A stretch of 64,000 bases of DNA. It comes from Candidatus Babelota bacterium (GTDB lineage Bacteria > Babelota > Babeliae > Babelales > Vermiphilaceae). This document shows positions 27,932 to 56,558 of the stretch, piece by piece. The notes beneath the pieces are model-generated. The model did no database searches, had not been told where the DNA came from, and worked only from the letters and a program-made list of their open reading frames with translations. Within the stretch, counting starts at the first letter, position 1. The number at the start of each line of letters is the position of its first letter. Both the position numbers and the translations under genes were made by a program. The stretch spans positions 265,317-329,316 of the forward strand of contig JAJCZD010000005.1 in NCBI GenBank assembly GCA_029262615.1, read 5' to 3'.

Positions 27932-28648
27932 TTATTTTGATCCACGTACAAAGGCATCTATTTGTCCAAATTCAGATTTTTTGTTGAAGTAATGAGTTGA
28001 ATCTGCAGACTCAATAATTTTTCCATTTTTCATTAAATGAATCATGCAGGATAATTTTTCCAAAAGCATAGTGTCATGTGTTGCAATCAGAACAATGTAT
28101 CCTTGCTGAGCAAGTTCTTCAATAGTATTAGCAACTTGTGTTGTTAGAATAGGATCTAATGCTGAGGTTGGCTCATCCAAGCAAATTACTTTTGGTTTTA
28201 ATGCAAGAATTCGTACGAGTGCCAAGCGTTGCTTTTGGCCACCAGATAACTGCTTAGGAAATTTTTTTTCCTGTTCTTGCAAACCATATTTTTTTAGTAA
28301 TTTATGAGCAATTGTTTCTGCTTCTTTTTTATTTTTTCCAAGTACATTCTCAAGGGCCAGTGTAACATTTTGCAACACTGTTAGATGATCAAATAAGTTA
28401 AAGCTTTGAAAAACCATCCCGATGGTATGTTCTTTGTTTACTGTTTTTAAATCTAAGGTTTTGCCATCCAATAAAACAAAACCAGAATCAAGTTCGTCTA
28501 AATTATTTAAAACACGTAGCAGGGTTGATTTGCCTACTCCAGACGGCCCTAAAAAAACAGCAATCGATCCATGATCAACAGTGACATTAATAGTATCAAG
28601 AACTTTTTTTGTGCCGTATTTTTTGTTCAGATTTTTAAGATGTAACAT
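27932..28648 (-). CDS. Polar amino-acid ABC transporter ATP-binding protein (GlnQ-like)
   Basis: GPSGVGKST, LSGGQKQRLALVRILA and ICLDEPTSALDP. Confidence 0.9.
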   Translation of the reverse strand: MLHLKNLNKKYGTKKVLDTINVTVDHGSIAVFLGPSGVGKSTLLRVLNNLDELDSGFVLLDGKTLDLKTVNKEHTIGMVFQSFNLFDHLTVLQNVTLALENVLGKNKKEAETIAHKLLKKYGLQEQEKKFPKQLSGGQKQRLALVRILALKPKVICLDEPTSALDPILTTQVANTIEELAQQGYIVLIATHDTMLLEKLSCMIHLMKNGKIIESADSTHYFNKKSEFGQIDAFVRGSK

Positions 28649-29306
28649 GCCTAGTTATCCTTTTCTCCACATAATTAAGAATCTGTGAAAGGGTAAATGT
28701 TAGAATAAGATATATACAGGCAACAGCAAGATAAATACTCATAAAATCGTAGGTTGCACTGGAAATTTGGCTTGCTTCTTTTGTTAACTCAACAACACCA
28801 ATAGTGGATGCTAAACTTGAGTCTTTTACTAATGTAATCAATTCATTACCCAAAGCGGGAAATACGACAGCAAAAGCCTGTGGCAAAATGATAAAACGGA
28901 TAATTTGCCAGTGAGAAAATCCCATAACACGAGCCGCCTCAATTTGGCCCATGCTTACCGATTGTATTCCTGATTTGACAATTTGGCTTATATAGGCCGC
29001 ACTATTGAGGCCTATAGCCAGTGTTGCAGCCCAAAAACGGGGTAGTCCTAATCCTATTTGTGGTAGGAAATAAAACATTATTGCAATTTGAATCAGCATA
29101 GGCGTACCACGCATGATGGTGACGTAAGTCGAAATCAAAAACCTTAGTAGTTTGTTTTTACTTGTGTTTCCAAGGCCTAAAACGGTGCCAAATATAATAC
29201 CGATAAGCGTACCGAGTGTTGCAATTTCAAGTGTAGTAATTGTTCCACGCAGGAGTTTTGGAAATGAATCGACAATTAATTGAAAATCGATCATTAAAGA
29301 TTCCAT
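28635..29306 (-). CDS. Polar amino-acid ABC transporter permease (GlnP/HisM family)
   Basis: EAARVMGFSHWQIIRFIILPQA EAA-loop motif. 5 TM segments. Overlaps both neighbours. Confidence 0.9.
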   Translation of the reverse strand: MESLMIDFQLIVDSFPKLLRGTITTLEIATLGTLIGIIFGTVLGLGNTSKNKLLRFLISTYVTIMRGTPMLIQIAIMFYFLPQIGLGLPRFWAATLAIGLNSAAYISQIVKSGIQSVSMGQIEAARVMGFSHWQIIRFIILPQAFAVVFPALGNELITLVKDSSLASTIGVVELTKEASQISSATYDFMSIYLAVACIYLILTFTLSQILNYVEKRITRHVTS

Positions 29307-30058
29307 TTTTGTTTAAGGTGCTCGATGGTACCATCTTCTTGGAGCTCTTCAAGTACTTTTTGTATTTGTTCAAGTAATTTAGGAAATTTTTTAGATATCG
29401 CTAATGCAATAATTTCTTCTGTTTCTGGAATTACTGTAATAGAAAATTGTTCTTTTCCGTACTTGTCAAAAAATGGTGTTACGCTTGCTTGTGAACTTAC
29501 AAATGCATCAGCACGTTTGTTCTGCAGTGCTAAAAACGCTTCTGCGGGTGCTTTTAGTTTGACTAAGTGAGGGCCTTCTATATCAGACATAAAAAAATCT
29601 GCAGTAAATCCTTCATTTACAACCACATCTTTATCAATTAATTCTGAAAGTGTTTTTAGTGGGGCATCTGCGCGAGAAATGATCAAAAGTGAACCGCCAG
29701 TTAAGTATGGTTTTGTAAATAATAACCGTTTTGCTCGCTGGGCGGTGGGGCTTAGGCCAGTTGCAATAACTTGAATTTGTCCCAATTGTGTCTCGGGTAT
29801 CAAAGCGGTAAAGGGCATATCTCTTATTTCTATTTCTTTGTCTAGACGATTTACTACTTCTTTTACAAGGTCAATATCAAACCCTACAATCTGGTCATCT
29901 TTAATAAAAGAAAAAGGAGGGTATTCGGAATTGGTACCCACAATTATGGTTTTCTTCTCAAGGGCTCTTGTTGGCAGTGGGCATTGATTGTGGGAGTGCC
30001 AAATATAGGCAGTGCTTACGATTAATAGGCTGATCACAATGGGTATTAATTTATTCAT
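29294..30058 (-). CDS. Amino-acid ABC transporter substrate-binding protein (family 3 SBP)
   Basis: Signal peptide; IIVGTNSEYPPFSF...IVGFDIDLVKEV...ATGLSPTAQR, typical of GlnH/ArtJ-type binding proteins. Confidence 0.85.
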   Translation of the reverse strand: MNKLIPIVISLLIVSTAYIWHSHNQCPLPTRALEKKTIIVGTNSEYPPFSFIKDDQIVGFDIDLVKEVVNRLDKEIEIRDMPFTALIPETQLGQIQVIATGLSPTAQRAKRLLFTKPYLTGGSLLIISRADAPLKTLSELIDKDVVVNEGFTADFFMSDIEGPHLVKLKAPAEAFLALQNKRADAFVSSQASVTPFFDKYGKEQFSITVIPETEEIIALAISKKFPKLLEQIQKVLEELQEDGTIEHLKQKWNL

Positions 30059-30152: not shown

Positions 30153-30950
30153 TTATCTATATTCAGGCCACTCAGGATTATACGCCGGCGGTCTGTTATT
30201 TTGCAGTGCGATTCGTAAATCATTTTTTTCAGTTATTGCACGGCATTGAGGGCAAGAATTTTTACGTTGATCAAAAAACCATTGCTGTGCACAGACTTTA
30301 CAAATATCATGGCCACAAGGCATTAAATAAATACGTTGGACATCTTTAAAAGAGTCAAAACATACGCAGCAATTCTCTGATGGGTATAAATCGTGATGGT
30401 GTTGTGTTTGAAGTGGCTGTTCAAATCGATTGCAACACTCTCGAGCTTTTTGTTTTAAGGCGTTACCAATGAAATTACGAAAAATACCATGAAATAAGAA
30501 ACTAGCAGATTGATGTTTTTTCTGTAGTTCACCAAGAATGCTCTTGGCTACTTTTTGGGAGATTGCATTATTTTTTGTTTTGTATAAAGCAGTATTGTAG
30601 CTTTTATTGTTTACAAATTTTTCTATTTCTTCGTTCATTGCGTATTGAATTGTTTTTTCATCAATGCTATTTGACCAGTGTCGTAATAAATTCCAAGCAA
30701 TACCCAAGCGAATGTTATTATTATTAAGGATATTTCTTTCAATTTCTTTAATATCTTCTACTACACAATCATTATTTTTACGATCATATTTTTGTAGGGC
30801 TTCCAAATCATTATACCCTTCACCACCAGGCATTGGATCAAATACTTGAATAAGGGTACCAAGAACATATTCTTCAACATCATATATCATTTGGCCAAAA
30901 GACTGATGAATCATGCATGTTGCAAGAAACAAAAATATATATTTTTTCAT
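30153..30950 (-). CDS. Secreted/anchored RING-HC (C3HC4) finger protein with C-terminal PPxY motif, eukaryote-like E3 ligase candidate
   Basis: CCVCFDSFKDVQRIYLMPCGHDICKVCAQQWFFDQRKNSCPQC fits C-x2-C-x14-C-x-H-x2-C-x2-C-x12-C-x2-C. PPAY lies 10 aa from the C-terminus. Leader MKKYIFLFLATCMIHQSFG (ATG 30950 preferred over the 30995 extension). Confidence 0.8.
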   Translation of the reverse strand: MKKYIFLFLATCMIHQSFGQMIYDVEEYVLGTLIQVFDPMPGGEGYNDLEALQKYDRKNNDCVVEDIKEIERNILNNNNIRLGIAWNLLRHWSNSIDEKTIQYAMNEEIEKFVNNKSYNTALYKTKNNAISQKVAKSILGELQKKHQSASFLFHGIFRNFIGNALKQKARECCNRFEQPLQTQHHHDLYPSENCCVCFDSFKDVQRIYLMPCGHDICKVCAQQWFFDQRKNSCPQCRAITEKNDLRIALQNNRPPAYNPEWPEYR

Positions 30951-31009
30951 AATTAACCTTTTTTCAATGAGGTGATTTAACCTTAGATTAAGCACTTTTT
31001 AGCTTTTGG

Positions 31010-32620
31010 TCAAAATAATTCTTTAATTAATTCATCAACTTGTCTTTGTGATATGTCACCCATTGCACGGTAAAACTCATCATCATATTCACGTGTTTGT
31101 ACTACCACGGGCATGGCAAGGGCATGGCCCATCAAAAGAGCTTGTTTTTTGGAGTCAAGTGATGCCAAAACAGAACGTAAGTTAGTTGCATTATTAATGC
31201 CAGTTAGCACTGCGGCAATGTCTTTTTCATCATTTAGTTGGGCAACAATTTTGGTACCAATTTGCGAAATAATTTCTTGATCAATGCCAGAAGGACGCTG
31301 GTCTACTACTAATAAAGAAACATAATATTTGCGCATCTCTCGCGCAATAGTACCAAAAATAGTTTGTTTTGCCGCAGCAGGGTTTAGAAATTTGTGTGCT
31401 TCTTCAATGGTGATCATGAGTTTTTTTGGTTCATCATCTTTTTTTTGTGAACCTAAAAATTTTTCCGTTTTTGCAACATATTCCTTATGTATGCGACGGG
31501 TAATAACATTTGCAATCAGCAAATATACAAACGTTGAGGTGTAATTACCAAATTCAATAATAATGCTAATATCTTTCTCGATGAACTCCATCATTTGGTC
31601 AATCACAGAATAATCTTTTGTTGCAGTCCCAGGCATGCGGGCTTTAAAGAATGGTAAACGCTCAACTCGTTTTAATTTTCGATATAATGCCGCAATCGAT
31701 TCTGGATGGGCACCAATTGATTGGGCAAACTCTTTTGCATTATGCCCTTGCGCGAGTAGTGCCTGCAGCCAATCTTGCTTGTACTTTGCCGCAATCAAAT
31801 AAGCTGCTTCTAAGGCGGTTGAGTGGAGATTCAGTTCACTTTGTAGTGATAAAATATCCTCAACATGGATTGACTGATAAGATAATGTTAATTCAACGTC
31901 CGGCTGGCCACCACGCCGACGGGTTGATTCAGGATCTAAAGAAAATATTGCAACCTTATTACCAAAAAGCGTTTTGAGGCCTTTAACAAATGATTTACCG
32001 CCGCCTTCTTTGCGTGCTTGCAAGCCGTACTCACTGTGCATATCAAAAATTAAATTTACTGCTTTATTATTTTTTATTAAACCGGCCAAAACTAATCGTG
32101 TTAAAAACGTTTTTCCAGTGCCGGTTTTGCCAAAAATGCCGTTTGAGCGCTCAGTTAACTTTTCCAGATCCAAACATACGGGTGTTTGCATATCAAGTGG
32201 CTTGCCAATATTAAAGTAGTTTTTGCTTGGATCATCCTCATCACCAAAAATAAGTGCAACATCTTTGTTGGTTGCCTCATGCACCTGAGCAAAGTGTGGT
32301 GGGATAGTTTTTACCGGCATTTTTTTATTTTCTCTATCAAGCATGAGCATCGGTTTTAAATTTGCCGTTGCATACATATCCTTGCGCTTGAGCATATCTT
32401 TGAGTAGTGTTTCATGCTCCTGTGGTGGATATAAAAAAATATCTTGATTAGTAACCTCTAATGATAAATCAGTAATTAATGAAAAGAATTTATACTGATT
32501 ACCAGAAATGCACACAAACTTGCCCGTTTTAATATCCTCAAGATCAGTTTGTGGGCACAAACGCATAATAAAACCGTCGGTTAATGAACCACCACAAATG
32601 GTGCCAAGTAATTTCTTCAT
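31010..32620 (-). CDS. HerA-like (DUF87) P-loop ATPase
   Basis: N-terminal HAS-barrel-like segment (GKFVCISGNQYKFFSLITDL), Walker A GIFGKTGTGKTF, Walker B MITIEEAHKFL, VVDQRPSGI. ATGA overlap with the upstream gene. Confidence 0.75.
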   Translation of the reverse strand: MKKLLGTICGGSLTDGFIMRLCPQTDLEDIKTGKFVCISGNQYKFFSLITDLSLEVTNQDIFLYPPQEHETLLKDMLKRKDMYATANLKPMLMLDRENKKMPVKTIPPHFAQVHEATNKDVALIFGDEDDPSKNYFNIGKPLDMQTPVCLDLEKLTERSNGIFGKTGTGKTFLTRLVLAGLIKNNKAVNLIFDMHSEYGLQARKEGGGKSFVKGLKTLFGNKVAIFSLDPESTRRRGGQPDVELTLSYQSIHVEDILSLQSELNLHSTALEAAYLIAAKYKQDWLQALLAQGHNAKEFAQSIGAHPESIAALYRKLKRVERLPFFKARMPGTATKDYSVIDQMMEFIEKDISIIIEFGNYTSTFVYLLIANVITRRIHKEYVAKTEKFLGSQKKDDEPKKLMITIEEAHKFLNPAAAKQTIFGTIAREMRKYYVSLLVVDQRPSGIDQEIISQIGTKIVAQLNDEKDIAAVLTGINNATNLRSVLASLDSKKQALLMGHALAMPVVVQTREYDDEFYRAMGDISQRQVDELIKELF

Positions 32621-34005
32621 TCACTCTTTTCTATGAATTGATTAAACCATTTTTGCATTCGTGAGAAGCTATTTTTGTTTATTTCCTGGTATGAATAGGC
32701 ATATTTTTCAGGACTCACATTTGTCGATTTTACATTACAATTCGCAAAGCAGAATTCATCAGGTTTTAATTGTTTTTGTTTTGTGATAAAGAACTTTGCT
32801 AATTGTGCATAATCTTTTTTATAGATAAGAATTAATGTATCAATGGTTGGTTGTGCACCAAACATAATTGCCAGTTTCATGTGCTTTTCTTGATCTGCAT
32901 TATTTTCTAATAACTCAAAGTCTTCTAAGACAGCATCTTTTTCTGATTGCTGATATGTTTTAAATTGTTGCCAAAAAGGATTCGCATATAATCCTTTCCT
33001 TTTTAAATATCGTTTAGTCTCTTGTAGATTAGATTTTGGATTAAATCCCTTAAGAAATTGTACTTCATCGAATATTTCAAAAATACCAATGTGCCGAACA
33101 AATTGATAAATATTAACATCATTTCGTGCCTTTAGCGCGAGGTGATTTAACCATTTTTCCTTAAAAAAATCGCAGCGAGATAGTTTCAATCCTGCACATG
33201 CAATTAAAAATAGTAACTTACTATCCTCAAGACCTGGGTTATATTCTCTATTGGCTTCAAAACAGGCAGACCAAAGAGTTCTTTTTGTTGGTTGAGCACC
33301 ATTTTCAATGGCTTTAATAAAATATTTTGTGTCACAATGAATAATATCTAATGCATACAAAATATCATTTTTTTCTTCTTGTGGTTTTTTTTCAAACTCA
33401 GAAAAATCTTCATATATGCCAATTTCTTTAAGTAGCTCATTTTTCTTCTCGTTATTATCCCAGCGAATTGCCCAGAGAGCTTTTGGTCCAGATTCCTTTG
33501 AACCATATTCCTCAAAGTTATGTCTAACTTCATCTGCCTTTTTTTGCCAATAATCCTTTATTACAAGTAATTTTTTGCATTTTTGGCACCATTCAAGAAA
33601 AGCATTAGTATTTTGTGCAACATGCGCCTTTTCTGGATCTGCACCATTTTTTAATAATAGTTGACAAAGAGATGTAAAAACCTTGTCATTATTTGCATTT
33701 GATTCGCAAAATTCTTTCCATAGATATGCTAAGGGTGTACCCGTTATTACATCATCTGCATTGGCATTTAAATCAAGCTTATCTTTCACCAACCAATATG
33801 ATGGTATTTGCAAAAGATCATCAATATTTTTATAGGGTTCTCGTTTTTGTAAGTAATATTTTAAATTTTGGTTGATTTCCAGGTTTACCAACCATGATTG
33901 GCTAGTCGTTCTAGTAGTATCACCGTTGTCATTTGATTCAATTTCGTTCATTGCGATTAAAGAACATGTTTTTGCAAGTAACAAAATTAGTAGAATTTTT
34001 TTCAT
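32617..34005 (-). CDS. Secreted hypothetical protein with degenerate ankyrin-like segments
   Basis: Leader MKKILLILLLAKTCSLIA-M. Segments GTPLAYLW...LCQLLLKNGADPEK, IKAIENGAQPT and AIMFGAQPT resemble decayed ANK repeats. Low certainty on the domain. Confidence 0.45.
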   Translation of the reverse strand: MKKILLILLLAKTCSLIAMNEIESNDNGDTTRTTSQSWLVNLEINQNLKYYLQKREPYKNIDDLLQIPSYWLVKDKLDLNANADDVITGTPLAYLWKEFCESNANNDKVFTSLCQLLLKNGADPEKAHVAQNTNAFLEWCQKCKKLLVIKDYWQKKADEVRHNFEEYGSKESGPKALWAIRWDNNEKKNELLKEIGIYEDFSEFEKKPQEEKNDILYALDIIHCDTKYFIKAIENGAQPTKRTLWSACFEANREYNPGLEDSKLLFLIACAGLKLSRCDFFKEKWLNHLALKARNDVNIYQFVRHIGIFEIFDEVQFLKGFNPKSNLQETKRYLKRKGLYANPFWQQFKTYQQSEKDAVLEDFELLENNADQEKHMKLAIMFGAQPTIDTLILIYKKDYAQLAKFFITKQKQLKPDEFCFANCNVKSTNVSPEKYAYSYQEINKNSFSRMQKWFNQFIEKSE

Positions 34006-35579: not shown

Positions 35580-37212
<1,633 letters not shown>

Positions 37213-44351: not shown

Positions 44352-44369
44352 AATTTTAGGAGAGCAGTG

Positions 44370-46121
44370 ATGAGAAAGTATTATTGGTTTATCTTTTTGG
44401 TCTTTAATTCTTTTATTTTCCCCATGATGAAAGCTCCAAAGGATCCCCACAGAGTATTAAATTTGGTGATTGATTTACATCAAGGAGGAAAAAATGAAGT
44501 GAAAGATTATGACCTTTCTCTTCATAATAAATTTGGTGCGGCATCACTTACCCTTGCTAATGCGATAGAAGATGAAATTCCAACTATAATTACCCCTAAT
44601 ATATTATATTTTTTATTTTTAATAAGTAGGCCTAATAAGGATTTAATTAAAGCTCTAGAGGAAGATGCTGCAACTGCCCAAACCAAATATGCACTCACCC
44701 TAGAAAGGATTGAAAAAGCAAAAAATGCAATTAACCAAATAAAAAGTCCAAAACTATGGCAAACCTATCGAACAAAAAATACAGAATTTCTTTTATTATT
44801 ACCCAAAAAATTTGGACAAAAGCATCTATTTACTATTGGTTTATCTAATGAGTTAACAAAAATTCCTGTATATAAAATAGAGCAGTTGGTAAAAGGAAAA
44901 ACATACAATCCCATTAACATTGAGACCTTAAATAAAATGATTGTAAATCCGAGTATAGCAAAGCGTATTTATTTAACTGGGCATGCAAGTTATTACCCTG
45001 AATGGCGCTCACCTGAAAAATCCTATGCGCAGTTAACCGCACCACAATATATCAGTTTTTTGCGGCATTTGGATAAAACAGGAGGGCAATTTTTGTATAT
45101 TTCTACTTGTTGGGCAGGTGGCCTTAATTTATTCAAGATGCATCATGAGCAGATTAAAGAATCAGCTAAAAATATTTTTTCAAAAGTATACGTTACTTAC
45201 CCCATTGTGGTTGGTGCACTAACGGAGGCACCAACTAAGGTAAGCTTTGAAGCAAAATTTAAACAATTTTTTGGTGAGCTAGATGATTTTTTTAACCGTA
45301 GAAAAAAAATTCTCCATTGGGTACGCAAACCATTTGAAAAAATTGTAAAGGCATTTGCAGAAAAATCATTATGGAACATTCCCTCAATTCGCTTTCCTGG
45401 CATTAATCAATTTTTCCAAGCAATACAAGTTGATGCCCAAGTTCAATTGATTACCTATCCGATATTGTTGGCTCATGAGCTAGCATTTAAAGCTAATAAA
45501 TTACCCACTCAAGCTTTTATCATTAAAGACAAAAAAGCTATTTTACTTTATCCCAGCATGGTACGCGTGCCAATAAAAATTGAAGGTACTGTGCCCTATA
45601 TGATTTCAATGATTCCTGGCAAAGCGCACCATTATATTCAAGAATTGGATGCGCACAATACTTCCCTTGATGAACTTGTACGTAAAATGTTTGCTGAACC
45701 AGTAATACTTTCAACAAAGGCTTTTTTTATACCAAAATTGCGATGTAAAAACTTTGAAGGCTCAGGGATTTTAGAAAAAGGTCTTTTTGAATTTCCTTTT
45801 GGCCCGGACAGTCCGTCTCAAGATCTAGAATTAAGTAATGTTACCATTTACGTTGAAAAAACACATTATTTTAATGTTCGTAGGCATAATCTTATTATCT
45901 ATTTTTATGTTGATGCCATAAAAAGTTATAAAAAATTTGGAATGACTAGTGTTGAAAATCTCCTGCCATATCCAGATATAACAATTGATGATGCTAAAAA
46001 AGAAATTAAAGCTAAGTTAGAAAAAACAAGACCTCAGCCTGCCCTTTTGACTGAAGCTTCGGGCGGTATTGAAAATGAGAGGCAATTTGAAAAATTAACA
46101 AAAAAATATCTTTCCTTATAA
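44370..46121 (+). CDS. Secreted hypothetical protein; possible clan-CD (legumain/caspase-like) cysteine peptidase fold
   Basis: AGGAGAG RBS. Leader MRKYYWFIFLVFNSFIFP-MM. Candidate His (RIYLTGHAS, nt 44982-44984) and Cys (FLYISTCWAGG, nt 45108-45110) are 42 aa apart, and each follows a hydrophobic strand. Confidence 0.55.
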   Translation: MRKYYWFIFLVFNSFIFPMMKAPKDPHRVLNLVIDLHQGGKNEVKDYDLSLHNKFGAASLTLANAIEDEIPTIITPNILYFLFLISRPNKDLIKALEEDAATAQTKYALTLERIEKAKNAINQIKSPKLWQTYRTKNTEFLLLLPKKFGQKHLFTIGLSNELTKIPVYKIEQLVKGKTYNPINIETLNKMIVNPSIAKRIYLTGHASYYPEWRSPEKSYAQLTAPQYISFLRHLDKTGGQFLYISTCWAGGLNLFKMHHEQIKESAKNIFSKVYVTYPIVVGALTEAPTKVSFEAKFKQFFGELDDFFNRRKKILHWVRKPFEKIVKAFAEKSLWNIPSIRFPGINQFFQAIQVDAQVQLITYPILLAHELAFKANKLPTQAFIIKDKKAILLYPSMVRVPIKIEGTVPYMISMIPGKAHHYIQELDAHNTSLDELVRKMFAEPVILSTKAFFIPKLRCKNFEGSGILEKGLFEFPFGPDSPSQDLELSNVTIYVEKTHYFNVRRHNLIIYFYVDAIKSYKKFGMTSVENLLPYPDITIDDAKKEIKAKLEKTRPQPALLTEASGGIENERQFEKLTKKYLSL

Positions 46122-46380: not shown

Positions 46381-47067
46381 TTAGTCTTTTACAGCAAGGA
46401 TAGAGCCATCAAAGCTATACACAACTACATCGCCATTGATCAATCCTACAGCAAGGTAATCGGTACCCCTTAATTGTAACCACGCAACACCACGTGCTCC
46501 TGAACCAGAATCTACCGTATCTAGTTGAGTAAGGCTAGAGCCATTAAAGCTATACACAACTACATCGCCATTTTGCCCTCCGACTGCAAGGTAATTGATA
46601 CCCCCTGACTTCAGCCACGCAACACTATTTGCTCTGGCACCAAAATCTACCGTATCTAGTTGAGTAAGGCTAGAGCCATCAAAGTAATACACAACTACAT
46701 CGCCATTTTGCCCTCCGACTGCAAGGTAATTGATACCCCCTGACTTCAGCCACGCAACACCACGTGCTCTGGCACCAAAATCTACCGTATCTTTTACAGT
46801 AAGGATAGAGCCATCAAAGCTATACACAACTACATCGCCATTGTTCCCTCCGACTGCAAGGTAATCGATACCCCCTGATTTCAGCCACGCAACATTTTCG
46901 GCATCAAAATTTACCGTTTTAAAAGCTTTCAAGGTGGTTGGAATCTGTTTTAATTTTGCTTTGTTGAGCGCTTTTATAAGTAAATCTTCGATGTCAGGTG
47001 CATCCATTGCCGCAGTGTAACTAGAAATAATGGTTATTATGCTAAAAACGATACCTTTAATCTTCAT
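46381..47067 (-). CDS. Secreted WD40-like beta-propeller repeat protein (4-5 blades of 42 aa)
   Basis: Leader MKIKGIVFSIITIISSYTAA-M. Repeats VAWLKSGGI(D/N)YLAVGG(N/Q)NGDVVVY(S/Y)F(D/N)GS(I/S)LT...DTVDFGARA. Confidence 0.75.
   Translation of the reverse strand: MKIKGIVFSIITIISSYTAAMDAPDIEDLLIKALNKAKLKQIPTTLKAFKTVNFDAENVAWLKSGGIDYLAVGGNNGDVVVYSFDGSILTVKDTVDFGARARGVAWLKSGGINYLAVGGQNGDVVVYYFDGSSLTQLDTVDFGARANSVAWLKSGGINYLAVGGQNGDVVVYSFNGSSLTQLDTVDSGSGARGVAWLQLRGTDYLAVGLINGDVVVYSFDGSILAVKD
46384..46905. repeat. ~4 tandem copies of a 126-bp coding repeat
   Basis: For example, GGTAATTGATACCCCCTGACTTCAGCCACGCAACA recurs at ~46599 and ~46725. The central copies differ at only a few positions. Confidence 0.85.
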
Positions 47068-53520: not shown

Positions 53521-53702
53521 TTTATTATATTTGTGACATTTTTAAAATTTAGAAAACATTATATTTACTGCATTATAGCAAGAAATTTTTCATTTGGAAA
53601 TTGTATGTAAGGCAAAAAATAAAGTATGTACTAAATTACAGTAGCAGTTTTTTGCAAATACCGTAAAATAAGGTTTCAATAATAAAGGTTTTGAGGGTTA
53701 CC

Positions 53703-56558
53703 ATGACACGCACCATTTTATCCATTAATTTTCTTTTCTGTTTTTGTTTTGTTTATCCTGCAGAAATAATGCTAGGTGATAAAGCCGCAGCAGCCGGGCA
53801 AACGTTTTCATTTGCTATTGGTCAGCATGTTGGATTTCCTGATGGAAGTATGTTTTTTGTTGGGGCTGCACAAAATGGTGCAGAAGGTTTTGCAATTGCA
53901 GGCCTAAGCCGTTTTCAAGATAATTTTCAACCATCACTTATAGAAAAAGCAACAGTGAATAATGTGGCAAATCAGATCAATCCGTTATTTAATAAAGGGA
54001 TTGCTTTCTTGAATCTGATTTTGTTGGGTGATAAAAATTATGCAACTATTTCTGTTACTAATGACGAAATTAAAACGATGAATTTGTTGCTTAAAAATGA
54101 TTTTGTTTTATCAACAAGCCCGCTTACTGATGCAGCTGGCAATATAACTGATGCTATTACGGCCATTACTGGTGGATTAAATACTGGTTTTGCTGCAGTG
54201 CGTGCAGAAGGACAAGCGCAATTTGGTATTGGTGATAGTGGTATTGCTTTTGTCTCTAAACTGTATCCAAATGCCGGAAAAAAAGAAGATGAGCAAAATG
54301 AGCAGAAAAAAAATAATATGTTCTTTTTGCAGCAAGATTTTGATAGTGATACTACGTTGCTTCGTGCTGCACCACTTAATATTTCTTCCGATATTATTAA
54401 AATAGGTGGTGATCTGGCTGGTGCCGAGGTTATTGACATGATATTTAATAATGATTTGACTCGGTTATATGTGGTTCTACAAGCACAAGCTGCCGCTGGT
54501 GGAGCTGATGGCGTTCGTGCTATGGCTATGGGTTACTTAATTCAAGAAGTGCAAGAAACGCCACAAACACAAGAAAACTCAGACTGCGAAAAGCCAGAAA
54601 AAAAGATAATCAAAACAAAGTTTAAATTAGTTGAGGTAGTGCCATCAGCCGTATTTGATGGTGCTCAGGATAAAATAATTGGCGCACTTGGTGCAAACGA
54701 GCAAGTTTCATTGCATAAAATTCGTTTTATGCTTACCTCTGGTCGAGTCCCATACCTTATAGTTGTCGGTGGTAATGGCTCACCAAATGCAACGGAGCAA
54801 TTGGTATTTGCCTTGCCAGTCGTTGATTTTCGTAATGAACTTGGCCAAGTGCCAAGTGACAAACTAGATCAACAAGGTGCCATTGCAAGCAAAGATGCAC
54901 CAGCAATTGCTCAATTTTCATCAAAAGCACCACATGTATTTTCATCGCGTCAATTTCAGGTTGAGGCAACAACCCCTGCACAAATGCCAACAAGCACAGA
55001 TGCCGCAACTCAAGTTGGTGGCGGTCCACTGCAAGCTGGCCCTATTACTGATATTGTGGTAGCTGCCGATTCTGTTTTTGTTTCTGTTGGTCAAGCTGAC
55101 CCAAATGAGAAACCGGGTATCTTTTATTCTCAAGCATTATTTGATGCGGATGAAAAAATTGTTGCATGGTCAGAATGGGCGCGCGTTGCTGGTACTACTC
55201 AAATGATTTTTGGTATTGGTTATGAACCGCAACAAGCTAATTTTGTGTATCTGACCGGATCAGATGCTAATGACATTAAAACGGTCAAGCGTACTCAATG
55301 GGGCCTTGGGGACCAACTGCTTTCCTTTGATTTAGTAAACAAAATCAACCGTCAATATCCACAAATAAATGGCGGTTTATTTGGTTATTTTGATTTTGCA
55401 TCAACAACTTCTGGCTTGCAAGAGGTTGCTATCCAGGTGGCAACTGGTTGTTCCAAAATAAGTTTGATACAAGCGGGAACAGGTTCTCCGGTTTGCCCAA
55501 CACAAGGAAGTTTCCCAGAACGAATTTTTGAAGATGGCACCATTGGCCAAACCTTTCCTATTGCCAATACGAAAATAGTAACCATTAACGGCGGTCAATT
55601 GGAAACCATAGGTCCAGTTGAAGCAGCAGAAATTGGTCAAGCCGGTGTAAATAGTTATTTATTTGTTGGTGGCCGTTGTGGCCTTGCGGTTTTGATACAA
55701 CCAAATGGTGATGGCTTTGATACCGCCTCTGGGCAATTAGAACCCGAGTTTGTGGGGCTATCCTCCGGCATGAAATTTGTTGGTATTGATGAATATAGGT
55801 TTGTACGCACATTAATAGCTGACCAAGGATTTTTGTATGTGTTAACCAATAATAAACTTGATCGTATTGATATCGCTGCTAGTGATTTTGCTACAGGCAC
55901 ACTTGTAGTGACCACTATCGCTCAACTGAATACATTTTCTGGATTAGGAGATGGTGGTAGTTTTAAAGACGTTATTATTTCCGGTAAATTGGCACTGCTT
56001 GCAACTAGTGCTGGTATGTTTCGTTTAGCAGATGGTAAAGATATCACAACCATTACTGGACCGGCTCAGCAAGATTGGCAAATAGTACCAATACCAGAAG
56101 GGCAATTACCCACACTTCAACTTTTTCCTATTTCTATAAACGGTCATCTGCAAGATGTATCAGCAAATTTAATTGGCCAAATTTATGCGCTCGGTTCTTT
56201 TATTTCGGCCCAGCAAGGTACGATTAATCGCTTTTCAATTACAAATACTATTGGAGCAAATCAAATAACAGACCAAACAGTGGAACCATTTGAAGATTTT
56301 GTTATACAAAATGTCTTAAGTAATTTTTCTCTTATTGGTGATAATCGGTGTTTATTTGCAACCGATGGCGCTGCTGGGTTAAATAGTGTTAATGGTACGG
56401 TAGGTTGTTGTGCAATATTGTTTAATAGATTCCGTGATTTCAAAGCAGAGATCCCGTTGCAAATTGAACCAGCATGTTCTATTGTACAAATTTTGCGATC
56501 ATCAGCATCAGGAAGTTGGTTTGTAGCTGGTGATTTTGGATTGCGTGTCAATGAATAA
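53703..56558 (+). CDS. Large secreted protein, Gly/Ala/Thr/Gln-rich, beta-rich (propeller-like?); no family recognised
   Basis: ATG 53703 is preceded by GAGGG. Leader MTRTILSINFLFCFCFVYPA. 951 aa with visibly higher GC than its surroundings and many long antisense ORFs. Confidence 0.7.
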   Translation: MTRTILSINFLFCFCFVYPAEIMLGDKAAAAGQTFSFAIGQHVGFPDGSMFFVGAAQNGAEGFAIAGLSRFQDNFQPSLIEKATVNNVANQINPLFNKGIAFLNLILLGDKNYATISVTNDEIKTMNLLLKNDFVLSTSPLTDAAGNITDAITAITGGLNTGFAAVRAEGQAQFGIGDSGIAFVSKLYPNAGKKEDEQNEQKKNNMFFLQQDFDSDTTLLRAAPLNISSDIIKIGGDLAGAEVIDMIFNNDLTRLYVVLQAQAAAGGADGVRAMAMGYLIQEVQETPQTQENSDCEKPEKKIIKTKFKLVEVVPSAVFDGAQDKIIGALGANEQVSLHKIRFMLTSGRVPYLIVVGGNGSPNATEQLVFALPVVDFRNELGQVPSDKLDQQGAIASKDAPAIAQFSSKAPHVFSSRQFQVEATTPAQMPTSTDAATQVGGGPLQAGPITDIVVAADSVFVSVGQADPNEKPGIFYSQALFDADEKIVAWSEWARVAGTTQMIFGIGYEPQQANFVYLTGSDANDIKTVKRTQWGLGDQLLSFDLVNKINRQYPQINGGLFGYFDFASTTSGLQEVAIQVATGCSKISLIQAGTGSPVCPTQGSFPERIFEDGTIGQTFPIANTKIVTINGGQLETIGPVEAAEIGQAGVNSYLFVGGRCGLAVLIQPNGDGFDTASGQLEPEFVGLSSGMKFVGIDEYRFVRTLIADQGFLYVLTNNKLDRIDIAASDFATGTLVVTTIAQLNTFSGLGDGGSFKDVIISGKLALLATSAGMFRLADGKDITTITGPAQQDWQIVPIPEGQLPTLQLFPISINGHLQDVSANLIGQIYALGSFISAQQGTINRFSITNTIGANQITDQTVEPFEDFVIQNVLSNFSLIGDNRCLFATDGAAGLNSVNGTVGCCAILFNRFRDFKAEIPLQIEPACSIVQILRSSASGSWFVAGDFGLRVNE

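Follow-up and report, generated by a model that had tools for sequence, protein, structure and literature searches.

The 64,000-nucleotide stretch of Candidatus Babelota bacterium DNA analysed here (assembly GCA_029262615.1, contig JAJCZD010000005.1, positions 265,317 to 329,316; hereafter the window) carries at 30153..30950, on the minus strand, a gene whose product is probably, though by no means certainly, an exported, host-directed RING-type ubiquitin ligase (E3) of an obligately host-associated bacterium that docks on host WW-domain proteins or on proteins of the endosomal sorting machinery ESCRT-I. The open reading frame (ORF) is complete at 265 residues, with its stop codon inside these coordinates, and it encodes a leader, a helical module, a RING finger and a tail bearing the motif PPAY. 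A preliminary description made from the letters of this DNA had reported the protein at the same positions, which the ORF list bears out, and had left its strand unstated. It had also read the protein as a host-targeting effector, which is the most coherent reading, and one that we infer. What that description missed is the wider picture of an apparently undescribed family of about 95 cluster representatives, which appear to belong to Dependentiae, with a new helical module and with strong enrichment of a second docking motif, P[ST]AP. The domain identity, the conservation, the motif statistics and the genomic context presented below were all computed here.

The RING finger occupies residues 194–236 (30243..30371, minus strand), where C194, C197, C212, H214, C217, C220, C233 and C236 are the zinc ligands. 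When all six frames of the window were scanned with the pattern C-x2-C-x(9-39)-C-x(1-3)-H-x(2-3)-C-x2-C-x(4-48)-C-x2-C, this was the single C3HC4 match, with the sequence that the preliminary description had quoted. Over residues 193–237, the Pfam model zf-RING_2 scores 36.7 bits (cut-off 27.3, E 5e-9), and the protein also exceeds the cut-offs of zf-C3HC4_3 (34.6 bits against 27), a family to which the ligases LRSAM1 and MGRN1 discussed below presumably belong, and of zf-C3HC4 (22.9 bits against 21). Judged by these profiles, the match lies far beyond chance. The model Prok-RING_4 reaches 18.2 bits, seven eukaryote-type RING models score higher, and because the prokaryotic model stays below its cut-off of 27, we consider the domain to be of eukaryotic type. 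The earlier statement that RING domains are eukaryotic inventions was too strong as a generality, given that prokaryotic RING families exist, but it was right about the type of this particular finger. The model zf-RING_UBOX also remains under its cut-off (20.3 bits against 25.2), and whereas a U-box has a RING-like fold without zinc ligands, all eight ligands are present and invariant here.

Comparisons with known structures point in the same direction. A sequence search of the PDB with residues 180–265 gave 138 matches at E<=1, and among the 60 matches listed nearly all are eukaryotic RING E3s, together with one herpesvirus RING domain; RNF141, TRIM25, RNF165/Arkadia, RNF13 and AMFR stand at the top. 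An AlphaFold (AF2) model of these residues, built on a 21-sequence alignment, has a mean predicted local distance difference test score (pLDDT) of 81, rising to 91–96 in the RING core, with predicted strands E27-29 and E35-38, a predicted helix H39-48 and a last stretch of ~20 residues that is disordered. Foldseek comparison of this model with the PDB yielded 50 listed matches, nearly all of them RING domains of E3 ligases, including RNF125-UbcH5b (root-mean-square deviation 1.4 A over 50 columns), TRAF6-Ubc13, IDOL, cIAP2 and BIRC7. The probabilities are ~1.0, and the E-values, at 0.014 and up, are modest because the domain spans 50 residues. The RING is followed by a helix at residues 242–250 (the DLRIALQ region; 30201..30227, minus strand), which is found in the secondary structure of both models and in the alignment, and whose L245 is invariant in the 8 closest relatives. 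A LYPS sequence before the RING was considered as an ALIX-type YPxL motif and rejected, as the Leu is missing and the sequence sits in a confidently folded part of the model.

All eight zinc ligands, G213 and P234 are invariant across 41 relatives that are 19–31% identical to the window protein. Solved complexes of RING domains with ubiquitin-conjugating enzymes (E2s), such as those of c-Cbl and RNF4, have revealed four positions that bind the E2 or act as the linchpin activating ubiquitin-charged E2 (E2~Ub). These positions are held by V196, W224, P234 and R237 in the window RING, and the family retains them: among 61 family RINGs, V or I stands ahead of the second Cys in 53, W or Y in the RING helix in 48, Pro after ligand 7 in 59 and Arg after ligand 8 in 49. 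With these residues in place the RING looks catalytically competent, and it appears genuine by every computational test applied. The canonical RING-HC finger that had been proposed for this protein has therefore held up in its Pfam scores, its E2-contact residues and its confident predicted fold, which matches RING E3s such as RNF125-UbcH5b; the ligands have not been lost in homologs, and the model gives no sign of a different zinc-binding topology.

The same residues bear on an alternative in which the protein is retained by the bacterium, either periplasmic or attached to the envelope, and the RING serves as a two-zinc interaction module for a bacterial partner, possibly an ABC importer or a HerA-like ATPase encoded nearby, with no role in ubiquitin chemistry. 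We consider this unlikely. The V/I, W/Y, Pro and linchpin Arg that are conserved family-wide are relevant only to E2 binding and ubiquitin discharge, and eukaryote-type Pfam models outscore a prokaryotic model that does not reach its own cut-off. Nevertheless, prokaryotic RING-like domains unrelated to host ubiquitin exist (Burroughs, Iyer and Aravind 2011; Pfam Prok-RING), and genes for ubiquitin, E1 or E2 enzymes were not seen among the annotated ORFs of the window. The leader, the docking motifs and the gene neighbourhood, which are considered in turn below, also bear on this alternative.

The N-terminal leader comprises residues 1–20 (30891..30950, minus strand), MKKYIFLFLATCMIHQSFG, followed by Q. 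Its n-region carries Lys-Lys, hydropathy shows a hydrophobic core behind it, and positions -3/-1 are occupied by small residues (S-F-G); a leader of comparable kind occurs in 81 of 93 family members, with most of the exceptions resembling N-terminal fragments. The leader noted in the preliminary description is thus supported by hydropathy as well as by conservation. A Sec-type signal peptide is the likely assignment, and an uncleaved signal anchor would also fit. Such a leader, nearly universal in the family, is as expected if the protein remains in the periplasm, and must be counted in favour of that alternative. A lipoprotein leader (L-A-T-C) was rejected, since orthologs (LMNC, FTVC) do not conserve the Cys at a lipobox and a Thr in position -1 is not typical of the lipobox consensus. 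We take the ATG as the likely start because MKKY opens all orthologs; starting instead from the GTG upstream, at 30995, would lengthen the protein by 15 residues to 280. A protein already on record from an NCBI contig of 394,890 bp (P0001) is identical to the one described here. Scanning for promoters and terminators around the gene revealed fewer promoter-like sites than in shuffled sequence and nothing informative.

The PPAYNPEW sequence of the C-terminal tail (residues 254–261; 30168..30191, minus strand), with the PPxY core at residues 254–257 (30180-30191), sits in ...NNRPPAYNPEWPEYR and is predicted to be disordered, with model pLDDT values of 59 and 42 in the final two 10-residue blocks. 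RPPAYNPEW is identical in three orthologs that share 60–78% identity overall, and seven proteins share the 8-mer PPAYNPE[WY], which lies on either side of the RING, in the tail or in the upstream linker; a relative of 33% identity, for example, carries NRPPAYNPEY ahead of its RING. Because of this conservation we regard the PPAY of the window protein as non-random. A PPxY is not in itself unusual: among long reading frames of the window, counted as stop-to-stop stretches of 120 codons or more, PP.Y occurs two further times, once within ClpB.

The relatives put this tail in a broader setting. Of 94 family proteins, 27 contain P[ST]AP, with 34 copies in total, where 0.6 occurrences are expected from global shuffling and 1.6 from local shuffling over 25 residues (maximum 6 in 500), an enrichment of 20- to 57-fold. 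Among the 12 ways to order P, S/T, A and P it leads by a wide margin, and the second, [ST]APP (17), is its own PSAPP extension. PPxY has 14 occurrences in 9 proteins (global shuffle 2.7; local shuffle 6.3, maximum 14). These motifs occupy two fixed slots. The first lies 11–48 residues before the first RING cysteine, where the sequence is often [KR]P[ST]APP and sometimes tandem, and the second starts 13–20 residues past the last RING cysteine, with 2–5 residues remaining to the C-terminus. The PPAY of the window protein begins 18 residues after the last zinc ligand C236 (17 on the family slot counting) and therefore falls in the C-terminal slot, in which relatives carry PSAP or PSAPPxY. The overlapped form PSAPPxY is present in four proteins (PSAPPAY, PSAPPPY and PSAPPLY twice) and resembles the overlapping PTAPPEY of Ebola VP40. 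The preliminary description had pointed to a PPxY motif in this tail, and the present data, namely its conservation, its disordered setting and the P[ST]AP or PSAPPxY of relatives in the same slot, support its assignment as a putative functional PPxY ligand. Eukaryote-specific motifs that are enriched and held at fixed positions also argue against confinement of the protein to the periplasm. We examined whether the PSAP tails might be a sorting signal of the PEP-CTERM or LPXTG type and rejected this, since no hydrophobic helix follows and merely 2–5 residues are left.

The UEV domain of TSG101 binds P[ST]AP and the WW domains of NEDD4-family ligases bind PPxY, and viruses as well as the Toxoplasma proteins GRA14 and RON5 recruit ESCRT by these means (PMC10159163). 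It is nevertheless conceivable that the protein is an active host-directed E3 whose PPAY tail is no WW ligand, in which case PPAYNPE[WY] would be a family motif for a reader of the SH3, EVH1 or PTB type, or a secretion or processing signal. This is an explanation to which we assign a low probability. The whole 8-mer is conserved, beyond PPxY; PPxY taken alone is weakly enriched; the NPEY found in P0004, P0062, L025 and L027 fits the NPxY consensus read by PTB domains; and SteD and TRP32, bacterial proteins that engage NEDD4-family ligases, do so without a canonical PPxY. Set against these observations are relatives with multiple PPAY repeats (five in P0045) and with PSAPPxY as in viral late domains, and a tail that is disordered and accessible in the model. 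A PPxY docking motif is therefore the reading of the tail that we prefer.

Known proteins offer several precedents for joining such motifs to a RING. RNF11, a small membrane-associated protein, has a PY motif and a RING-H2 finger. Like RNF11 and the Ndfip adaptors, which bind or activate NEDD4-family ligases, the window protein would use PPxY as a handle for WW domains; unlike it, RNF11 is eukaryotic, anchored by acylation and of the RING-H2 rather than the RING-HC type, and the Ndfips are multi-pass membrane proteins without a RING. LRSAM1/TAL has a tandem PTAP-PSAP and a C-terminal RING, MGRN1 has PSAP and a RING, and both attach to TSG101 by P[ST]AP and ubiquitinate it (PMC7073217, PMC7874611). 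The family under study shares this combination of a docking tetrapeptide with a RING, and several relatives carry tandem motifs as LRSAM1 does, in their case P[ST]AP copies 10–26 residues apart (10–12 in P0006, P0027 and P0034) and 11–48 residues before the C-terminal RING. Unlike these two ligases, compared here by description, the window protein is bacterial, has a leader, bears PPAY rather than P[ST]AP, and lacks LRR, SAM and coiled-coil regions.

The viral parallels are of a different kind. HIV Gag with PTAP, RSV Gag with PPPY, and Ebola VP40 with PTAP and PPxY resemble the family, as do GRA14 and RON5, in that their disordered regions contain short P[ST]AP or PPxY motifs, frequently more than one to a protein. 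However, in viruses and Toxoplasma these motifs reside on structural or vacuole-membrane proteins without a catalytic domain, whereas the bacterial family fuses them to a ubiquitin-ligase domain. A 2023 review lists no bacterial protein with such motifs (PMC10159163). We raise, as a tentative and rather doubtful extension of the preferred reading, the idea that the window protein is the founding member of a bacterial family of ‘late-domain ligases’. In this scheme, Dependentiae proteins exported through Sec and type II secretion would imitate P[ST]AP, PPxY and PSAPPxY, bring host ESCRT-I and ligases of the NEDD4 type to the compartment of the bacterium or to outer-membrane vesicles, and ubiquitinate them by means of the fused RING, in the way that LRSAM1/TAL and MGRN1 act on TSG101. 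If true, the bacterium would control ESCRT-dependent membrane repair, nutrient uptake or egress, and the relatives P0089, P0094 and P0107, which have no RING, would be pure adaptors.

The extent of the family became visible through the helical module that precedes the RING. This ‘pre-RING’ module (residues 21–191; 30378..30890, minus strand) is family-specific and predicted to be all-helical, although the whole-protein model on which the latter rests is of low confidence. A profile of these residues, searched exhaustively against 1.84 billion cluster-representative proteins, matched 95 representatives at E<=1e-3 and 54 at E<=1e-10. Word-index searches for homologs found 4–8 relatives and so badly under-counted the family; these were orthologs at 60% and 78% identity, the relative at 33% and long forms of ~500 residues, one of the latter, the single relative with a named source, being encoded in a Candidatus Dependentiae metagenome-assembled genome (MAG). 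Most family members have 235–340 residues in the order leader, helical module, Pro/Ser/Tyr-rich linker, C-terminal RING and short tail, and the C-terminal RING is present in 61–63 of 94–96. For the module, Pfam matches stayed beneath their cut-offs (AAA_12 and D5_N, both weak), NCBIfam matches were absent, and a profile search of the PDB gave nothing under E 0.06. A whole-protein AlphaFold model based on a 4-sequence alignment is helical, with a mean pLDDT of 48.7, and was unusable for a fold search with the module. The preliminary description had raised the matter of paralogs; within the window, a hidden Markov model of the module run on all ORFs matched the RING gene alone.

Variation within the family is considerable. 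The long forms (L001 5020-6513, L006 7687-9165, P0006-P0008 and P0032) add N-terminal parts ahead of the shared module and RING: a leader, then hydrophobic segments rich in glycine, of which there are one or two more, and a stretch rich in Gln that resembles a coiled coil. Their paired hydrophobic segments recall the inclusion-membrane proteins of chlamydiae. A tandem pair of RING fingers occurs in three relatives (P0050, P0061 and P0082), and P0057 and P0087 have long insertions within the RING. The module is found without a RING in P0089, P0094, P0107, P0053 and P0067, and several of these proteins keep PTAP, PSAP or PPAY near the C-terminus (PTAP or PPAY in P0089, P0094 and P0107), which suggests that the docking motifs travel with the module and not with the RING.

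The genomic setting indicates that the gene is a long-standing resident. Upstream is a HerA-like ATPase gene with DUF87 and HAS-barrel domains by Pfam (31010..32620, minus strand), and downstream a polar amino-acid ABC importer (27932..30058, minus strand) composed of SBP_bac_3 (29294-30058), permease (28635-29306) and ATPase (27932-28648). The binding protein was assigned by Pfam, and the permease and ATPase by size, position and the Pfam matches of their counterparts in L003/L004, L018, L024, L028 and L043. We give these genes as context and claim no functional link for the HerA-like ATPase. The order HerA ... RING - SBP_bac_3 - permease - ABC ATPase recurs in L002, L003, L004, L018, L024, L028 and L043, with the HerA-like neighbour likewise at L002, L018 and L028, and the RING proteins of L018, L024, L028 and L043 are only 27–37% identical to that of the window. 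In L002 (1811-2970), ~1.16 kb free of ORFs separates the HerA-like and RING genes, compared with 59 bp in the window. Each locus has one copy of the RING family. The adjacency to SBP_bac_3, permease and ABC genes, kept over deep divergence, speaks for a periplasmic partner of the RING. However, the operon partner is not constant, because the long-form paralogs sit elsewhere, in a conserved neighbourhood of HhH-GPD glycosylase ... RING ... alanine racemase.

Synteny at 27–37% identity, together with a guanine-cytosine (GC) content of 0.35 that equals that of the surroundings, leads us to regard the gene as old and vertically inherited in its lineage. The ratio of nonsynonymous to synonymous substitution rates (dN/dS) against orthologs is 0.10–0.17, with dS near saturation, and is indicative of purifying selection. 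Outside the family, the best RING matches in a collection of 5.8 billion proteins reach ~40–44 bits (one possible family fragment aside), one of them from a bird, and a search with a RING-only profile returned generic RINGs at 25–44 bits and no clear donor lineage. Recent transfer is thus very unlikely, given GC content that matches the flanks, deep synteny and the distance of all RING matches outside the family.

These data also address the notion that a RING gene was once transferred from a eukaryote or a giant virus and survives here only in decay or without function, or that contamination or misassembly produced the locus, which we find very hard to credit. In its favour, the ortholog in L003/L004 is split into ORFs of 114 and 156 residues by a 2-bp deletion in the run CGCAAAACTAAAAG (L003 940-1000), and RINGs from giant-virus MAGs match the RING region, one of them then followed by PSAPP. 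Yet the near-identical contig L016 (1380-1545) is intact and lacks the frameshift; the split reflects either gene loss confined to a strain or a fault of assembly. In the window itself the ORF is intact, with the low dN/dS and native GC content noted above and with all ligands invariant, and the gene keeps its order among bacterial housekeeping genes on at least 6 independent contigs; ClpB, UvrC, GlnA, Lon, MurJ, atpD and TIM are encoded around the locus in the window. A viral origin was separately considered and rejected, since viral contigs match the RING alone and never the helical module. The giant-virus protein with PSAPP (MAG GVMAG-M-3300025138-11; L008 4995-6335) has 446 residues, an N-terminal RING (NPCGHNICKPC...CPLCR) and IPSAPPAP ~25 residues after it, a RING-then-PSAPP arrangement as in the bacterial family, and it hints at a cassette common to parasites of protists.

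A candidate means of export is encoded in the window. Legionella type II substrates can reach the host cytosol, a precedent that makes a similar route plausible here. Candidate export genes assigned by Pfam lie at 768..9143 on the minus strand, where two secretin genes (768-3239 and 5423-8041) flank a PilM-like gene (3792-5426) and a T2SS-C (GspC)-like gene (8049-9143) comes next, and these may serve the RING protein. The secretin set matches the pattern of two gspD copies known from TM6/Dependentiae: all TM6 genomes studied have two copies of gspD and no pilQ, along with components of type II secretion and the type IV pilus (Yeoh et al., PMC4776705). Together with the one named relative, this fits a producer that is probably a member of Dependentiae (TM6) and probably lives inside protists. 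Signal peptides are carried by 44% of all proteins, and by 78% of those with ankyrin repeats, in the cultured Dependentiae isolate Chromulinavorax, and Sec export and outer-membrane vesicles have been proposed as effector routes (PMC6561590). Comparative papers on TM6 mention ankyrin, WD40, F-box, LRR and TPR proteins and not RING proteins (PMC6561590, PMC4776705), and our literature search found no paper that links Dependentiae to RING or ubiquitin enzymes.

From these elements a sequence of events can be proposed for the preferred reading, in which the export route, activity, partners and host are what we infer. Its three components, namely export by Sec and type II secretion, engagement of an E2 by the RING and docking by the tail, are suggested by the ligand precedents of TSG101 and NEDD4, the logic of LRSAM1 and MGRN1, and the signal peptides of Chromulinavorax. 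The leader would carry the protein over the inner membrane via Sec, and the protein might then leave the cell, either via the type II secretion-like machinery whose genes lie in the window or inside outer-membrane vesicles, to arrive in the host cytosol or at the cytosolic face of the compartment that holds the bacterium. There, to judge from the conserved residues and the model, the two-zinc cross-brace of the RING would bind a ubiquitin-charged host E2 through V196, W224 and P234, while R237 would act as the linchpin that primes ubiquitin for discharge. The disordered PPAYNPEW would serve as a PY motif for a host WW-domain protein, for instance a HECT ligase of the NEDD4 family, and the P[ST]AP of relatives in the same slot would dock on the UEV domain of the ESCRT-I protein TSG101/Vps23. 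The docked partner or its neighbours could then be ubiquitinated, or else recruited or activated, such that endosomal or vacuolar membrane traffic is remodelled, following the logic of LRSAM1/TAL and MGRN1, in which P[ST]AP and a RING serve to ubiquitinate TSG101, and of viral late domains. The helical module would probably select the substrate or the location.

Unfortunately, several points weigh against this proposal. A cysteine-rich zinc domain that follows a Sec leader enters the periplasm first, where zinc loading may be compromised, and we know of no route from periplasm to host cytosol that has been demonstrated in the Dependentiae phylum. Bare PPxY is weakly enriched in the family, at 2–5 times the shuffled expectation, and P[ST]AP is absent from the window protein itself; because the latter motif is found in 27 of 94 relatives and is missing here, it is a property of the family and not of this member. 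No function is known for the helical module, and modelling of the whole protein gave a poor result. In addition, the split ortholog of L003/L004 suggests that the gene may be dispensable in some strains.

Among bacterial proteins, the nearest characterised case comes from Simkania negevensis, whose RING E3 SneRING (SNE_A12920) is active in experiments (PMC12591485). Like SneRING, the window protein would be a RING-type E3 of an intracellular bacterium, Simkania also infecting amoebae, and both belong to small, lineage-restricted families that pair a RING with a domain of unknown function; SneRING has been proposed to remodel host organelles. Compared by description, the two differ in architecture. 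SneRING has an N-terminal RING with His/Asn ligand substitutions and Ser at an E2-contact position, followed by an alpha/beta domain, whereas the window protein starts with a hydrophobic leader and an all-helical module and has its canonical C3HC4 finger towards the C-terminus, before the PPxY tail. The U-box and U-box-like effectors (LubX, GobX and RavN of Legionella; NleG of enterohaemorrhagic Escherichia coli) likewise mimic E3s of the RING class and work with E2s of the host. These effectors have no zinc ligands, and type III or type IV systems deliver them without a Sec leader. The window protein, in contrast, has complete zinc ligands and what appears to be a Sec-type export signal.

If the proposal is confirmed, its significance would extend beyond a single gene. 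Known bacterial E3 mimics are mostly of the U-box, HECT-like or NEL type and are secreted by type III or type IV systems, and canonical zinc RINGs have been characterised in bacteria only recently (SneRING, 2025). As an E3 effector candidate, the window protein is unusual in its export signal, its new module and its docking motifs of late-domain type. Almost no effectors of Dependentiae have been studied by experiment, and this protein would be a tractable entry to the question of how unculturable parasites manipulate their protist hosts. We would also have the first bacterial example of late-domain mimicry of which we are aware, and a natural case in which interchangeable P[ST]AP and PPxY modules are fused to a ligase.

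Several other features of the window deserve mention. A 462-residue ORF with a hydrophobic leader (32617-34005, minus strand) shares 4 bp with the beginning of the HerA-like gene, has no Pfam or NCBIfam match, and could be another secreted protein. At 35580-37115 (minus strand) is a lone gene for the F1 ATP synthase beta subunit (TIGR01039, 743 bits), which stands between genes for a methyltransferase and a divergent DEAD-box helicase and to which no other atp genes are adjacent. A 228-residue WD40/beta-propeller-like protein is encoded at 46381-47067 (minus strand) and represents a eukaryote-like domain of the kind reported in TM6 genomes. Four large ORFs of 584–955 residues are on the plus strand (44367-46121, 53691-56558, 57934-60747 and 60773-63451), three of them without a Pfam match and one with a DnaJ domain alone in its 937 residues. 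Finally, the cumulative GC skew climbs steadily across the last 10 kb of the window.

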